From an uncultured Clostridia bacterium (GTDB lineage Bacteria > Bacillota > Clostridia > TANB77 > CAG-508), in the NCBI GenBank assembly GCA_947581895.1, contig CANPWE010000005.1, positions 1 through 59,911 of the forward strand: a stretch of DNA of 59,911 nt, given 5' to 3'. The notes under the pieces are model-generated. The model was not told the origin of the DNA. It was given only the letters and a program-made list of their open reading frames with translations, and made no database searches. Below are positions 45,547-49,478 of this stretch, one piece after another. The position numbers and the translations under genes are program-made. The stretch's first letter is position 1. The number at the start of each line of letters is the position of its first letter.

Positions 45547-45578
45547 AAAAGGATGAATAGTGTTTTATTCATCCTTTT
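45547..45578. terminator. Bidirectional terminator between the ABC permease and kinase genes
   Basis: 13 bp stem aaaaggatgaata/tattcatcctttt, overlapping the kinase stop codon. Confidence 0.7.
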
Positions 45579-47041
45579 ATAATAATATTCCTTTTTGAAT
45601 TATTTATGTTATTAATATTTTCATATCTGTCAGAAATAATAATATATTCTTGTTTATTATCAAATTTGATTTCAATAGATTTGGTATAATTGTTATGTGT
45701 AATTTCATTAATAATTAAACTTGCATTACAAGAATTTATAGTTTCAAAGGTAGTTATAAATCCAATTCCAGTACCACCTTCACTTTCATGTGTAGAAGCG
45801 GGTTTTAATCCAAGATTTAATAATGTATCAATTTCAAAAGGTATACCACTATCAAAAACACATAATTCATATGATTCATCTTTTATTCCAAATACTACCA
45901 TAATACTTTTATAAGTATTTGAACTATGGTTTATGGCAATAATTGCATTTCTAATTAAATCACCAAGTAATGTTTCTAATTGATTTTGGGGGATTAAGTT
46001 ATTTATCATATGTTGTATATTGCAATCTATTTTTAAGATGAATTCAATATTATTTTTAGTACATTCTGATTGCATATAAGATAACATATCATCTATTTCA
46101 ATAATATTTGTTTTTGTAAGTTTTGGTTGAGTATAGGTTTTAGCAGAATATTCATCTGATAGTTTATTTATTCTATCTAAAAGATTTCCATAATCTTCAC
46201 CAAATTCAGTATTAAATGATGAAGAAGTTTGTTTTATTAAATCATCTAGCTTTTTTCTTAATGCTTCTTGTCTGTGATAAAATTCATGGTTTGATTTTAT
46301 GAGTTTTTGTTTTTCTTCAAGAGCTGTTTGTAGTTTTTGTTTGGTGTCTTGTAATTCTTGTTCGCAGTCTTTTAGGGTGTTATATATAAGTTTTTGCTTT
46401 TGGTATAGGATAAAGATTCTTCTAATGATAGGAATAAGTATTATAGAAGAACATACTAAAGATATAAAAATTATATCACGTGATAAAATCTTATAATTTC
46501 CAAGTAAAAAGCAAGTAATAATAACTATAAAACTAGCTATAAGTATAAATAAATCAAAGTAATTATTATAATCTTTATTATTCAAAAATGGAAAACCATT
46601 TTTAAACCTTTTAATTCTAAAAAAATAGTGTACTGTAATAAATTGCAGTATAGATATTAATAGAAGTAGGATAGTGTTATTAAATGTATCAAAATTAAAA
46701 ATAAGAAAAATTATTGTCCATATTAAAGTTGAAATTAATAAAGTAATATAAGATAATGAAGCCGAGATTATAGTTATTATTAAGCATGAACTAAACTTAT
46801 AATGAGTAAGTAGAGTAAAGAATATACTATATAAAACAAATACACTAATCCATAGTGTAAATCCAGGAAAAATTTTTTTGAAGCATGTCACCATTATAGA
46901 TACTAGAATTGAAAAAGTGAAAATAAATAAATTCTTCAATAAATTACAGCTTTTTAATTGAGTTACTTTTATGTATATATAACTAAGTGATAAGGTAATT
47001 CCAAAAGTTTTTATAAATGTATTAATAAATATTGAATTCAT
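45569..47041 (-). CDS. Polytopic sensor histidine kinase with GHKL ATPase domain (AgrC/ComD-like architecture)
   Basis: About 6-7 TM helices in the first ~225 aa, a coiled linker, a candidate H-box SNHEFYHRQ, N-box LGDLIRNAI, and G-boxes FDSGIPF and GGTGIGF. AAAGGAGG RBS before the ATG at 47041. The track's longer form translates through that RBS. Confidence 0.8.
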   Translation of the reverse strand: MNSIFINTFIKTFGITLSLSYIYIKVTQLKSCNLLKNLFIFTFSILVSIMVTCFKKIFPGFTLWISVFVLYSIFFTLLTHYKFSSCLIITIISASLSYITLLISTLIWTIIFLIFNFDTFNNTILLLLISILQFITVHYFFRIKRFKNGFPFLNNKDYNNYFDLFILIASFIVIITCFLLGNYKILSRDIIFISLVCSSIILIPIIRRIFILYQKQKLIYNTLKDCEQELQDTKQKLQTALEEKQKLIKSNHEFYHRQEALRKKLDDLIKQTSSSFNTEFGEDYGNLLDRINKLSDEYSAKTYTQPKLTKTNIIEIDDMLSYMQSECTKNNIEFILKIDCNIQHMINNLIPQNQLETLLGDLIRNAIIAINHSSNTYKSIMVVFGIKDESYELCVFDSGIPFEIDTLLNLGLKPASTHESEGGTGIGFITTFETINSCNASLIINEITHNNYTKSIEIKFDNKQEYIIISDRYENINNINNSKRNIIIKG

Positions 47042-47080
47042 ATGTCCTCCTTTATTATAAATTTGTATAATTATATAATA

Positions 47081-47129
47081 AAAACAAAAAGTAATCAACC
47101 ATTACTTTAATTTGAAAGTAATAGTTGAT
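47081..47129 (-). terminator. Hairpin terminator/attenuator between the micro-ORF and the kinase gene
   Basis: On the minus strand: 15 bp stem ATCAACTATTACTTT/AAAGTAATGGTTGAT (one G-U pair) followed by TACTTTTTGTTTTT. Confidence 0.7.
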
Positions 47130-47155
47130 TTTTAAATGTGTGTAAACCAATGATA

Positions 47156-47209
47156 TTATAGTCCCATTACCCATGCAACAGTTTCAACAAGTTTATCCCA
47201 CCAAGACAT
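47156..47209 (-). CDS. Unannotated 17-codon ORF MSWWDKLVETVAWVMGL (candidate signalling, amphipathic or leader peptide)
   Basis: AAAAGGAG RBS (47218..47225) 8 nt before the ATG at 47209; TAA stop at 47156..47158. It sits just upstream of the kinase on the same strand. Too short for the ORF track. Confidence 0.5.
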   Translation of the reverse strand: MSWWDKLVETVAWVMGL

Positions 47210-47233
47210 ACAAATCACTCCTTTTATAGTATT

Positions 47234-47250
47234 TGCACAAACCTTGTGCA
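47234..47250. promoter_or_regulatory. Palindromic candidate operator upstream of the micro-ORF
   Basis: TGCACAA-acc-TTGTGCA, perfect 7 bp half-sites, 25-40 nt upstream of the micro-ORF start codon. Confidence 0.4.
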
Positions 47251-47339
47251 TATAAAAAGGATATCATCGTGATAGCCCAAAATAGCTGAAATGAGAGATT
47301 ACAAAACAAATGCAAAAGCTACAAAAAAATAATAAAATA

Positions 47340-47366
47340 TGACAAAATGTGACAAAATATGACAAA
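47340..47366. promoter_or_regulatory. Three direct TGACAAA repeats at exact 10 bp spacing (0A-box-like)
   Basis: TGACAAA at 47340, 47350 and 47360. This is one mismatch from the Spo0A-box consensus TGNCGAA. Looser T[GA]NCAAAA repeats continue from 47300. Confidence 0.45.
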
Positions 47367-47439: not shown

Positions 47440-47690
47440 GAAATAGAAAATATAAAAAGGTATAAATAAAGATGTAAAAAACAAAGAATATAAAAATATA
47501 AACATATAAGAAAATAAAGATATAAGAATATAAGAATATAAAAATATAAATATATAAGAAAATAAAAATATAATAATATAAAGATACAAGAAAATAAAAG
47601 TATAAGAATATCAAGATATGAAAATATGAAAAAATAAAGATATAAGAAAAGAAAAATATGAGAATATAAGAATATATAAATATCAAAAAA
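47440..47690. repeat. About 250 bp degenerate, nearly C-free (plus strand) A/T-rich repeat tract
   Basis: Iterations of ATATAAGAA/AATAAAGA-like units. Only about 5 C residues on the plus strand. It gives rise to the artefactual IFLYSY... ORFs in the track. Confidence 0.6.
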
Positions 47691-47710
47691 AGCACTTTAC
47701 TTAAGTGCTT
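47685..47710 (-). terminator. Rho-independent terminator of the response regulator gene
   Basis: On the minus strand: stem AAGCACTT/AAGTGCTT, with the stop codon straddling the stem-loop junction, followed by a 6-7 nt T-run. Confidence 0.7.
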
Positions 47711-48497
47711 TCTTAATCTTATTCGCATAATAATAAACAAACTCAGTAGGTGTAGGAACACCAGTTTCATAATTAATCTTAGCTGTATAATAAGTTTCTA
47801 AATCCTCCAAACTTGAAAATCTCCAAGCATGTAAAATAGCATTTTGCATATTTCTACTAATAGTACTACTAGCACGCTTATATTTATTTATCAAATATTG
47901 AACAACACTAATCTTTTCACCACCATTTTCATTAGTAATTAAATAATAAATTGCATCATGTAAATATGTTCTACCTTTTAAATGTAATCCAATACCAATT
48001 AAATCTAGCTCCTCATTAATCATATTAGAAATCTTTTCTTCATTTTCTTCAGTATCTTCAACAACAATATTACCAGTAAAAGAAGTATCTTCACTATACC
48101 CACTAATCAATACCAAAGTATTAATCACATTTTCAACACTATAATTTTTCTGTTTTTTATAAAAAATTAAATCAACACCTTTATCATGTAAATAATCATA
48201 AATAGTATTTGATGAAACAACAGTATTAACAACTAATTTAGGCTTTTTAGCAAACCTCATCTTTTGTAAAGTTTCTATTAAACCAAAGGTATTTGAATTA
48301 CCAGTACCATTGTGTAATTCAATATCTAAAATTACAGCATCTGGTAAATTAGTTTTTATTAATTTTAGAGCCTCAATATCAGAATCTGTTATTGCTACAA
48401 GATTTACATCATTTCTAGTTTTTATATATTTTTCAAACTTTAAACATTCAGATTTATCATCTTCAACTAATAGTACATTAAGAATTTTATTACTCAT
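47697..48497 (-). CDS. Response regulator with a Spo0A-type C-terminal DNA-binding domain (Spo0A paralogue)
   Basis: Receiver domain: LLVEDD, ILDIEL. The C-terminal domain aligns with Spo0A motifs: LIGIGLHLKGRTYLHDAI, ASSTISRNMQNAILHAW, VPTPTEFVYYYANKI. Confidence 0.85.
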   Translation of the reverse strand: MSNKILNVLLVEDDKSECLKFEKYIKTRNDVNLVAITDSDIEALKLIKTNLPDAVILDIELHNGTGNSNTFGLIETLQKMRFAKKPKLVVNTVVSSNTIYDYLHDKGVDLIFYKKQKNYSVENVINTLVLISGYSEDTSFTGNIVVEDTEENEEKISNMINEELDLIGIGLHLKGRTYLHDAIYYLITNENGGEKISVVQYLINKYKRASSTISRNMQNAILHAWRFSSLEDLETYYTAKINYETGVPTPTEFVYYYANKIKKALK

Positions 48498-48707
48498 TTT
48501 ACCATCATTCCTTCCTAAACTTCATCTAATCTATTTTCAAAATCATAATAACATATTCATTTGCAGAATTCTACAAAATTTTTGCATTAATTATCAAATT
48601 TTATCAATAGCAAGTATAGTAGAATTAATATTAATTAATCAGGTTATATAATATGGTATATAAAAGTAAAAATATAAATTCAACCAAAGAAAGGAAAGGA
48701 ATTTTAA

Positions 48708-49073
48708 ATGAGTAAAAATATAGAATTAATGGAACAAATTGGGGAAAGAATTAGAAATATTAGAAATGAACTAAAAATGAATAAAGAGTCTTTAGCTAGA
48801 GCTTTGGGTGTTACAGGTCAATTTTTAGGTGTTGTAGAAAGTGGAAGAAGTAATATTTCATATGATAAATTAAAAAAACTGTGTGATATTAGTGGATATT
48901 CTGCTGATTATATTTTATTTGGTAGAAATAATGAGATTATTTCTGAAACTAAAAAAGGTTTAGAGGAATTTTCTAATGAGCAAATTCAAGATGCATGTGA
49001 AATAATTAGTAAAATTGCAGTTTTTATGAAAAACAATAAAGAAAGTTTTGAAAATGATGAACAGCAGAATTAG
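48708..49073 (+). CDS. XRE-family helix-turn-helix transcriptional regulator
   Basis: IGERIRNIRNELKMNKESLARALGVTGQFLGVVESGRSNISYDKLKKLCDISGYSADYILFG. Divergent from the response regulator gene. Confidence 0.8.
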   Translation: MSKNIELMEQIGERIRNIRNELKMNKESLARALGVTGQFLGVVESGRSNISYDKLKKLCDISGYSADYILFGRNNEIISETKKGLEEFSNEQIQDACEIISKIAVFMKNNKESFENDEQQN

Positions 49074-49203
49074 AAATCTTTTTCCATAATATGAAATTAT
49101 AAAAATTTAAAATGATAAAAAAAATCTTTTGATTTTGATAAAAATATAAAAAATAAAAAAATATATAAATGAATACAATATTTACAAAATGAAAATACTA
49201 TAT

Positions 49204-49232
49204 TTGACATAAAACCATTATTTTGGTAATAT
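49204..49232 (+). promoter_or_regulatory. SigmaA-type promoter
   Basis: TTGACA, 17 nt spacer, TAATAT, upstream of ORF 49275. Confidence 0.55.
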
Positions 49233-49274
49233 ATGTATAAAAATACAAAAGTACCAAAATAAGGAGTAATAGAA

Positions 49275-49478
49275 ATGAACGAAAAAATAGACTTTGACTT
49301 TAATGTACCACAATATATTATAGATGAATTAGATGAATATATTCAAGATGTAAAAAATGGAAAATATAGATATATGAAACTTGAGAATATAAAGGCCTTA
49401 ACAGGTCTTGCTAGATTAAATAATAGGATTACCAAAGAACAAGGAGATTATATATTAGAAAAGATTCAGCAAATTTAA
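49275..49478 (+). CDS. Hypothetical 67 aa acidic protein
   Basis: AAGGAG RBS and its own promoter. I recognise no family. Confidence 0.5.
   Translation: MNEKIDFDFNVPQYIIDELDEYIQDVKNGKYRYMKLENIKALTGLARLNNRITKEQGDYILEKIQQI

Follow-up and report, generated by a model that had tools for sequence, protein, structure and literature searches.

The locus considered here resembles several well-described peptide signalling systems, the closest being agr (AgrB-AgrD-AgrC-AgrA and the clostridial agr-like loci), the group of ComCDE, BlpCHR and PlnABCD, and ComQXPA of Bacillus. It is a cassette in a 59,911-nt stretch of DNA from an uncultured Clostridia bacterium (assembly GCA_947581895.1, contig CANPWE010000005.1), hereafter the window, and comprises genes for a Spo0A-like response regulator and for a sensor histidine kinase with a seven-transmembrane (7-TM) domain, a short open reading frame between them (micro-ORF) encoding a Trp-rich peptide, and a divergent gene for an XRE-family helix-turn-helix (HTH) protein. 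An earlier note on the same DNA had proposed a unit of a peptide and a polytopic kinase whose output is Spo0A-like. This proposal is supported by the co-occurrence of the genes, by purifying selection on the peptide, and by co-diversification of the peptide and the sensor in two species, and we consider it fairly probable that the region is an undescribed quorum-sensing-type cassette with a leaderless peptide and a Spo0A-like output.

Similarly to agr, the cassette has a small peptide gene adjoining those of a response regulator and of a kinase with 6-7 transmembrane (TM) helices, direct repeats in front of the peptide transcript (here as candidate regulator sites), and a hypervariable segment, spanning the peptide and the kinase sensor, that is combined with an invariant regulator and yields several specificity groups per species. 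Unlike agr, it contains no AgrB-type processing enzyme, and the peptide has no leader, no tail and no conserved Cys or Ser that could form a thiolactone or lactone ring; the kinase has no HATPase_c_5 domain, the output domain of the regulator is Spo0A_C and not LytTR, and the peptide, the kinase and the regulator are encoded by three predicted separate transcription units. The absence of a LytTR regulator, of AgrB and of a C39-peptidase exporter had been remarked on before, and indeed none of them was encountered, whether in the window or in the conserved neighbourhood of the module.

With ComCDE, BlpCHR and PlnABCD the cassette would share a linear unmodified peptide, a polytopic kinase, autoinduction via direct repeats, and matched pherotypes, but there is neither a double-glycine leader nor a C39-peptidase ABC exporter, the peptide is merely 11-18 aa long as translated, and the regulator is Spo0A-like rather than of the LytTR type. 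As in ComQXPA, the pheromone gene and the N-terminal membrane domain of the kinase are polymorphic within a species while the regulator is conserved, and Trp is a central residue; in contrast to ComQXPA, an isoprenyl transferase (ComQ) is lacking, the peptide does not arise by cleavage of a longer precursor, and the regulator differs from ComA, which is of the NarL type. Finally, phenol-soluble modulins (PSMs), whose genes are direct targets of a quorum-sensing regulator, are also leaderless and form strongly amphipathic helices; however, the cassette peptides are half their size and non-cationic, have no Pmt-type exporter nearby, and co-vary with a receptor, which points to a signalling role.

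The regulator has the two-domain architecture, the Spo0A_C fold and the 0A-box-like candidate sites of canonical clostridial Spo0A, from which it differs by scoring below half of the equivalog cutoff, by sometimes being present in several copies, and by being coupled to a peptide gene. By analogy with clostridial Spo0A and its orphan kinases, it would presumably receive its phosphoryl group straight from a membrane kinase, with no phosphorelay in between; unlike the orphan sporulation kinases, the cassette kinase is adjacent, dedicated, and has no PAS or HisKA Pfam domains. Spo0A homologues other than the master regulator, of unknown function, have been reported, namely Clo1313_0637 of C. thermocellum and the two or three spo0A genes of some Clostridiales (PMC4890492; bioRxiv 10.1101/2022.02.25.481979). 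These extra copies are 49-58% identical to B. subtilis Spo0A, whereas the cassette family is 26-34% identical to Spo0A in the DNA-binding domain, and they have not been reported together with a peptide gene or a dedicated kinase.

Literature searches on Spo0A-like regulators with pherotypes, on leaderless pheromones and on peptide-sensing kinases in Clostridia yielded no account of the cassette, in agreement with the suggestion that the combination is new. It seems that the kind of circuit, a peptide, a kinase and a regulator with pherotypes, is known, while every component comes from a different family than in the known systems and dedicated maturation machinery is missing.

Results

Conservation of the cassette

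A word-index search yielded 854 relatives of the regulator and 1359 relatives of the kinase, all of them from uncultured gut or rumen Clostridia bearing generic names or none. Scanning the GTDB species genomes, we obtained 49 loci, hence 50 with the window. The divergent XRE homologue was found beside the regulator in 48 of them, both misses being caused by contig ends, and a kinase homologue was found downstream in 45, the misses being contig ends or disrupted loci. Between the regulator and the kinase, 49 of 52 junctions contain an ORF of 11-18 codons that is rich in Trp and preceded by a strong ribosome-binding site (RBS).

The three junctions without a micro-ORF belong to the first modules of tandem pairs, where the regulator abuts the kinase, and in each case the second module carries a peptide gene. 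The tandem pairs are L032 (1781..4077), L042 (1771..4068), and L038 with L045; in them the first module has the order XRE-regulator-kinase and the second one encodes MSFWEWLAYWLK, so that each pair combines a receptor-only module with a complete one.

A metagenome scan with a sub-alignment of distant family members produced 80 further loci (human gut, termite gut and other sources). Here, a micro-ORF of the same kind was observed in 46 of the 50 junctions having both the regulator and the kinase, its products including MWEWIMEFFKYWGGV, MLDELIDYIRKIFGM, MWKEFLDYLSKILGM and MSGFMNWLRRVMW. In total, the same gene order with the micro-ORF recurs at about 100 independent loci, while the flanking genes vary; thus, the joint occurrence of the kinase, the micro-ORF and the regulator in related Clostridia, a check proposed in the earlier note, is borne out.

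The family is large: an exhaustive HMMER search gave 1365 regulator-family representatives at 50% identity, 117 of them with E <= 1e-30, forming a smooth continuum down to 30% identity, and one regulator sequence (P0390) occurs on 333 contigs. Short representatives consisting of the DNA-binding domain only resemble gene fragments or chimeras.

In the clade of the window, the XRE gene is conserved as the fourth member of the cassette; in one more distant species it is absent from the position adjacent to the regulator, which is occupied by dtd. Its product is a 121-aa protein with an HTH domain alone, and hence lacks the architecture of RRNPP/Rgg regulators (HTH with TPR, about 280-300 aa). An anti-phage defence system was also considered and rejected, as PADLOC gave just generic receiver and HTH matches.

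Matched alleles of the peptide and the sensor domain

The evidence most directly linking the peptide to the kinase comes from allelic variation within species. In the first species (rumen and gut), three loci with an identical regulator (P0007) have flanks that are 99-100% identical. The identity drops to approximately 45-50% exactly at the ATG of the micro-ORF, stays low through the hairpin, the kinase promoter and about 206 kinase codons comprising the TM domain, and returns to approximately 100% within the DHp/CA region of the kinase. We extended this set to 17 contigs encoding P0007 or P0008, which differ in one of 266 residues and have the same synteny. Seven peptide alleles were found among them, MSWDEFWEWYRKLMGWN, MWDNFWDWLEWLLSH, MWNDMWEFLRWLAGLD, MWDAFWDAIKWMFGV, MWDNIWEFIRWLAGLG, MWDFWEALKWYLGHF and MSWDEFWETFRRLMGLN, and every allele was constantly paired with one kinase N-terminus.

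A comparable drop in identity was observed in a second, unrelated species from the human gut (28% G+C, regulator P0390), with flanks 94-99% identical, the regulator 99% identical, and the peptide-plus-sensor segment only 31-58% identical between alleles, of which there are approximately eight. One matching contig is QRFC01000145.1, the prefix of which (QRFC01) we take to denote a set of cultured-isolate assemblies. A few kilobases upstream of the module in this species (L150-L155, 3774..6949) there are genes for proteins with dockerin- and cadherin-like domains and for an ECF sigma factor with a beta-propeller protein. The dockerin genes brought Ruminococcus bromii to mind as the second species, but this is ruled out by the G+C content, which in R. 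bromii is about 41%.

Across loci (n = 30), the distance between peptides correlated with the distance between sensor domains when the regulator distance was controlled for (partial Mantel r = 0.37, p = 5e-4). Matched variable alleles behind a conserved regulator are known from the specificity groups of agr and from the pherotypes of comCD and comQXP, and are typical of secreted pheromone-receptor pairs, of which PlcR-PapR is another. As the alleles of the cassette co-diversify in this agr- and comCD-like manner, mutual recognition between the peptide and the kinase membrane domain is implied.

Organization of the locus

The cassette lies between an ABC-2 transporter and rpsO-pnp, on the minus strand except for the divergent XRE gene. 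On that strand the order, 5' to 3', is the regulator, its terminator, an AT-rich tract, TGTCAY repeats, a palindrome, the RBS and the micro-ORF, a hairpin, the kinase promoter, the kinase, and a terminator. All elements described in the earlier note were recovered, on the minus strand, at or near where it had placed them. The features are as follows.

48708..49073, plus strand: XRE-family HTH protein, 121 aa (Pfam HTH_19, HTH_3), divergent from the regulator
48568..48607, minus strand: promoter region of the regulator gene, TTGATA-18-TAGAAT, with a degenerate tandem box TTGATAAAATTTGATAAT overlapping it (promoter scan and sequence)
47697..48497, minus strand: response regulator, 266 aa, receiver and Spo0A_C DNA-binding domain (profile and structure matches)
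47686..47714, minus strand: intrinsic terminator of the regulator gene
47436..47688, strandless: AT-rich tract, 253 bp, 8-bp periodicity, between the regulator terminator and the boxes
47339..47364, minus strand: triple direct repeat TGTCAT-N4-TGTCAC-N4-TGTCAT, 10-bp phase, candidate regulator site
47234..47250, minus strand: palindrome or hairpin TGCACAA-ggt-TTGTGCA, about 10 nt 5' of the micro-ORF RBS
47156..47224, minus strand: micro-ORF with its RBS (AAAGGAG at 47218..47224, ATG at 47209, stop codon ending at 47156)
47083..47130, minus strand: micro-ORF terminator, its 16-bp hairpin with a T run at 47093..47130
47070..47098, minus strand: kinase promoter TTGATT-17-TATAAT (promoter scan)
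45569..47041, minus strand: sensor histidine kinase, 490 aa, with a variable 7-TM N-terminal domain of about 210 aa, DHp, and GHKL CA domain
45547..45578, minus strand: terminator of the kinase gene

The AT-rich tract consists of approximately 32 units of TATAAAAA-like sequence and is peculiar to the window, as the spacer is much shorter in the relatives; possibly, it is intrinsically curved DNA or a recent expansion.

The micro-ORF and its peptide

The micro-ORF of the window comprises 17 codons and a stop codon and encodes MSWWDKLVETVAWVMGL. The strong RBS noticed earlier is AAAGGAG, and the RBS is strong in the relatives as well. Across these relatives, synonymous alternation (AGT/AGC, TTT/TTC, GAA/GAG, TAT/TAC, GGN) preserves the residues of the peptide, the N-terminal half being conserved and the C-terminal half variable. 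As the codons vary synonymously while the amino acids are kept, this comparison shows that the micro-ORF is, by all signs of its substitution pattern, translated, and that its product is under purifying selection. The pattern in the clade of the window is MSW(W)D.FWE...L.G(L), and in the sister clade it is MSFWEWLAYWFGL.

The 91 distinct peptides are 11-18 aa long (median 15), contain 17.6% Trp (it is absent from four peptides), have a net charge of mostly -1 or 0, and have almost no Cys or Pro (Cys occurs in three). Their helical hydrophobic moment is 0.455, compared to 0.246 for shuffled peptides. Judging by composition and hydrophobic moment, the peptides are leaderless amphipathic helices without a ring-forming residue.

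The same properties have to be weighed for an alternative, in which the peptide acts within the cell that makes it: it would not be released but would sit in the membrane of the producer and bind the TM domain of the kinase, in the manner of MgrB-PhoQ or SafA-PhoQ, the diversity being due to co-evolution of the pair and recombination. This explanation agrees with the absence of a leader, an exporter and a processing gene, with the short, hydrophobic and amphipathic, hence membrane-seeking, peptides, with the tight linkage of the peptide to the sensor, and with boxes upstream of the micro-ORF, which would suit feedback. However, a peptide of 11-18 aa is too short for a helix spanning the bilayer, there is no evident driver for seven or eight divergent alleles per species behind an invariant regulator, and receptor-only modules beside complete ones are better compatible with a diffusible peptide. 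We therefore regard cell-autonomous action as unlikely, although it is the alternative that deserves to be taken most seriously.

The Spo0A-like regulator

The C-terminal domain of the regulator matches Pfam Spo0A_C (PF08769) over the complete model (positions 1-104 of 104) with 55.2 bits (gathering score 25, E = 7.5e-15), so that it does score as Spo0A_C in the profile search suggested earlier. The receiver is marginally below the gathering score of Pfam Response_reg (28.8 versus 30.2 bits), and its phospho-site is complete, the residues E12, D13, D58, T92 and K114 being invariant in 16 relatives; because of this invariance, the receiver should be phosphorylatable. A profile built from the 16 relatives retrieved the Spo0A DNA-binding structures 1FC3 (E = 4e-13) and 1LQ1 (2e-12) and the Spo0A receiver 9PHZ, and in the AlphaFold2 (AF2) model of the regulator the receiver is superposed best on Spo0A receivers (TM-score 0.86-0.90). 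Hence the description of the protein as a CheY-type receiver fused to a Spo0A-type C-terminal domain holds, and the gene also has a terminator of its own, as had been claimed. In public databases the family is annotated generically, as 'Spo0A C-terminal domain-containing'.

At the same time, the regulator does not appear to be canonical Spo0A. It is aligned with the NCBIfam model spore_0_A (TIGR02875) over its full length at 91.8 bits, while the cutoff is 200, and ten distant family members all score 52-113 bits, none of them being canonical Spo0A. The identity of the family to the Spo0A DNA-binding domain is 26-34%, and the recognition helix is SRNMQNAILHAW versus SRVERAIRHAIEVAW in canonical Spo0A. 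Phage origin of the DNA-binding domain was considered and rejected, since phage matches are just 27-31% identical and are not nearer than canonical Spo0A.

The two alternatives to be distinguished are that the regulator is a paralogue of the sporulation master regulator, or that it is the only, highly diverged, Spo0A of the lineage; in the latter case the kinase would be a sporulation kinase, and the cassette would gate the initiation of sporulation by a peptide. The latter would be consistent with the full-length Spo0A-like architecture, the receiver structurally nearest to Spo0A receivers, 0A-like DNA repeats, and the presence of gpr, spoIVA and a gerA-type operon in the organism. Further, recN in the window is followed by lysS and not by spoIVB-spo0A, and canonical spo0A was found neither in the 60-kb window nor in approximately 700 kb of related loci, a very small sample. 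On the other hand, the score of 92 bits against a cutoff of 200 contrasts with those of sporulation proteins from the same window, which exceed their cutoffs 1.7- to 3-fold (SpoIVA, 770 versus 460; GPR, 356 versus 120), and the distant representatives score equally low. The regulator is present in two copies in several metagenome-assembled genomes, some of them in tandem, while a master regulator is expected to be single-copy; the DNA-binding domain has diverged to the mentioned 26-34%; the module is adjacent to XRE, rpsO and pnp rather than to recN-spoIVB-spo0A; and frameshifted kinases circulate in natural populations. Since the equivalog score is low, a genome may carry more than one copy, and sporulation orthologues from the same window score well above their cutoffs, we infer that the regulator is a paralogue, and a role as the sporulation switch of the lineage appears improbable.

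The histidine kinase

The kinase gene starts with the ATG at 47041 (490 aa) rather than with the TTG at 47098. No Pfam or NCBIfam kinase model matches it at threshold. In the kinase family (n = 22), HATPase_c is sub-threshold in 14 members (best E = 2.6e-4), HATPase_c_5 (PF14501) matches none at E <= 0.1, and no match to a HisKA model was obtained either. A profile of the 22 relatives retrieved nothing significant from PDB, and AgrC was not among the matches at E <= 1.

In contrast to the profiles, the structure is recognizable. The AF2 model (mean pLDDT 76) has seven TM helices, the last one continuous with a long DHp helix, followed by a second DHp helix and an alpha/beta CA domain; a Foldseek search with it retrieved DHp-CA kinases at probability 1.0, including HK853, CpxA, ZraS, BceS and the cytoplasmic domain of AgrC. 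The alignment contains an invariant H-box SNHEFYHRQ, the N-box LGDLIRNAIIAI, and the boxes G1 (DSGIPFE) and G2 (GGTGIGF). In the wider family the H-box is [STN]HEFY[HN]RQ, and as only its first His is invariant, H252 is the likely phospho-acceptor. Seven TM helices continuous with DHp-CA, and a sensor with approximately 45-50% identity between strains of one species that have identical regulators, correspond to the HPK10 architecture.

Therefore the kinase is a genuine, although very divergent, histidine kinase, and its resemblance to AgrC is architectural and not a matter of detectable homology. Of the earlier label of an AgrC-like polytopic GHKL kinase, the seven TM helices, the DHp-CA architecture and the N, G1 and G2 boxes stand, while the resemblance to AgrC at the level of profiles does not.

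In L056 (4206..5683), the kinase gene accompanying the allele MWDNFWDWLEWLLSH is interrupted, leaving ORFs of 173 and 313 aa; the same allele in L067 (3277..3795), which comes from a different sample, is also followed by a kinase ORF of 173 aa, but this one ends at the contig end. By analogy with agr, where such variants are known, these may be natural signal-blind variants. In L040 (5950..6930) and L027 (after 5955), closely similar extra sequence, approximately 500 nt in L040, is situated 3' of the micro-ORF and matches no Rfam family; the kinase of L040 is divided between two ORFs, one of 152 and one of 326 aa.

Candidate DNA sites and transcription units

The triple TGTCAY repeat has no second occurrence in the 60-kb window, for which 0.02 occurrences are expected by chance. 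In the 180 nt upstream of the micro-ORFs of the relatives, TGTCAT is the most enriched specific hexamer, with 29 occurrences versus 2.4 expected (12-fold; 22 of 48 loci), and TGTC[AG][AT]A is enriched 11-fold, both values being inflated by the common ancestry of the loci. The sites are mostly organized as two to four direct repeats with a 10-11-bp phase. Some relatives have perfect 0A boxes at this position: TGTCGAA in L041 and L043, tandem TTCGACA in L046 and L047, and a single TTCGACA in L011. Upstream of the regulator genes of the relatives we observed TTGACAA-N3-TTGACAAT, that is, TGTCA boxes in the reverse orientation with a 10-bp phase.

Spo0A domains bind tandem 0A boxes head to tail, as in the 1LQ1 structure, while XRE proteins usually bind palindromes; thus, direct repeats fit binding by a Spo0A-like protein. 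The earlier note expected a specificity other than for the canonical 0A box. This agrees with the different recognition helix; however, as the candidate boxes share the TGTC core of the 0A box and some relatives have perfect TGTCGAA, the specificity looks 0A-like rather than unrelated.

The palindrome between the boxes and the RBS (47234..47250) is supported by comparison of 11 relatives, in which 90% of the cells are paired, with compensatory changes in four of seven pairs (GTAC..GTAC versus GCAC..GTGC). In the sister clade (L015 and its relatives), an 11-bp palindrome ATCACTTATAC-N6-GTATAAGTGAT followed by T7 is situated approximately 30 nt 5' of the RBS. The palindrome is either an operator of the XRE protein or a hairpin in the 5' untranslated region. 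A larger outer stem sequestering the Shine-Dalgarno sequence was rejected as weak (65% of cells paired), only the small inner hairpin being supported. A scan of the intergenic regions against Rfam gave no match at E <= 1.

Since the peptide gene is situated behind repeats of the type bound by response regulators, and its product resembles phenol-soluble modulins in its leaderless amphipathic-helical chemistry, the peptide could also be an effector, that is, a surfactant or toxin of the PSM or bacteriocin kind under two-component control, the variable TM domain then providing self-recognition or immunity. The peptides, however, have half the length of PSMs and leaderless bacteriocins and are mostly anionic or neutral instead of cationic, there is no conserved immunity or export gene, and co-diversification with the sensor of the kinase argues for recognition over killing, which leaves this explanation with very little probability.

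The hairpin after the micro-ORF, pointed out earlier as a terminator, indeed has a 16-bp stem and a T run, and a hairpin with a T tail is found in 47 of 48 relatives, although the stem sequences differ. A near-consensus promoter TTGATT-17-TATAAT precedes the kinase in 43 of the 48, its -35 element TTGATT being the 3' arm of the hairpin. Because the micro-ORF is followed first by a terminator and then by the kinase promoter, the peptide and kinase genes are predicted to be transcribed separately, the terminator of the one overlapping the promoter of the other. This arrangement makes us reject, as hardly credible, a leader-peptide attenuator (trpL/pheL type) or an arrest peptide tuning read-through into the kinase by the supply of aromatic amino acids, which a short ORF with two to four Trp codons and an intrinsic terminator before the kinase gene might bring to mind: the minimum free energy fold is a lone terminator without a competing antiterminator overlapping the ORF, the kinase has its own promoter in the 3' arm of that terminator at 43 of 48 loci, the non-aromatic residues E5 and G12 are conserved at the protein level, Trp is absent from 4 of the 91 peptides, and the co-diversification of the peptide with the membrane domain of the kinase would be left unexplained.

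The host and the neighbouring genes

The G+C content of the window is approximately 25%, and its gene content, with gpr (GPR endopeptidase), spoIVA, a gerA-type operon, recN, clpXP, pknB/stp and other housekeeping genes, is that of an uncultured spore-forming member of Clostridia. The genes gpr and recN are situated within 2004..6399, with lysS after recN; spoIVB-spo0A at this place is the usual order in Firmicutes. The gerA-type operon (16480..20813, minus strand) looks damaged: GerXA is intact, but the GerXC homologue is distributed over two overlapping ORFs (16480..17043 and 16982..17911), and the GerXB-like permease, with only 287 aa, covers positions 81-353 of a model 357 positions long. 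Either the genes have decayed or the assembly contains a frameshift.

Of the neighbours listed in the earlier note, the divergent XRE gene belongs to the module, whereas the others do not travel with it: the ABC-2 permease is found in 1 of 50 loci, its ATPase in 3, the sigma factor in none, and the 67-aa acidic protein in 4. Hence the ABC-2 transporter was rejected as the exporter, and the sigma factor and the 67-aa protein were rejected as parts of the module. Nor is the sigma factor compositionally foreign, as had been stated (G+C 0.277 versus about 0.25 in the window). It is encoded at 42291..43109 (minus strand), is SigK/SigE-like (128 bits, below all equivalog cutoffs) and has a C-terminal extension of approximately 90 aa. 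The 67-aa protein (49275..49478, plus strand), encoded 3' of the XRE gene, has no match in Pfam, NCBIfam or PADLOC.

The genes rpsO-pnp (49976..52571) adjoin the module in the window and are situated 6-8 kb away from it in the distant human-gut species with 28% G+C (L150-L155, 18495..20789). This shared proximity hints at an old, vertically inherited position of the module.

Discussion

We propose the following circuit. The micro-ORF would be transcribed into a short mRNA of its own and yield a leaderless, amphipathic, Trp-rich peptide of 11-18 aa, the presumed cognate ligand of the variable 7-TM domain of the kinase. The kinase would be produced constitutively from its own near-consensus promoter, and binding of the ligand would alter autophosphorylation at the invariant His of SNHEFY(H/N)RQ, from which the phosphoryl group would be transferred to Asp58 of the Spo0A-like regulator. 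The regulator would then bind the tandem TGTCAY repeats with a 10-bp phase 5' of the micro-ORF, presumably closing a positive feedback loop, and would probably also act at its own promoter and at other targets. The XRE protein would be a co-inherited accessory regulator, probably a repressor. As there are many matched alleles behind an invariant regulator, and receptor-only modules occur, an intercellular role is favoured, so that the system most likely serves pherotype-specific quorum sensing or kin recognition, with export of the peptide presumed.

Several observations weigh against this reading. No exporter, processing enzyme, or signal or leader sequence accompanies the peptide, either in the window or in the conserved neighbourhood of the 50 loci, and that the peptide would be secreted we purely infer. 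The correlation between peptide and sensor distances is moderate, some tandem modules have no micro-ORF, and the kinase family (22 members, profile searches) has no detectable homology to known peptide-sensing HPK10 kinases. As regards the regulation, no confident position could be assigned to the micro-ORF promoter, and shared ancestry inflates the box statistics; the repeats upstream of the regulator genes coincide with a -35-like TTGACA, which is the sigma-A -35 consensus, and so may be promoter elements instead of regulator sites, and the candidate TGTCAY boxes could equally bind canonical Spo0A.

If the proposed circuit is correct, one may go further and, with more reservation than for the cassette itself and somewhat short of expecting it, suggest that it represents a hitherto unrecognized class of quorum sensing in Gram-positive bacteria, one that is widespread among the Clostridia of gut and rumen. 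The peptide of this class would probably be unmodified and released without a dedicated processing or export gene, the kinase would represent a new 7-TM family, and the Spo0A-like regulators would form at least 117 clusters at 50% identity (E <= 1e-30). At least seven mutually exclusive pherotypes per species would then provide for strain-level kin recognition, and the 0A-like sites may feed into sporulation or developmental decisions.

Peptide signalling in the spore-forming Clostridia that dominate the gut and are for the most part uncultured is poorly known beyond the agr-like and RRNPP systems, and the cassette would add a third type. Its three parts would all be new, and they are easily overlooked: a leaderless peptide of 11-18 aa is missed by gene callers, the kinase is not detected by the curated Pfam kinase models, and the regulator is annotated generically. 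The cassette is abundant: one regulator sequence is found on 333 contigs, and clustering of the family at 50% identity gives more than 100 clusters. Peptides of this length can be synthesized, which makes the hypothesis directly testable, and from the matched alleles one would predict that cross-talk and interference in the gut are strain-specific. Together, the Spo0A-like output and the 0A-like sites suggest a possible link of cell-cell signalling to sporulation or transmission, and bear on the long-standing question of how sporulation is initiated in clostridia; should the regulator prove to be the only Spo0A of its lineage, the finding would gain interest rather than lose it.

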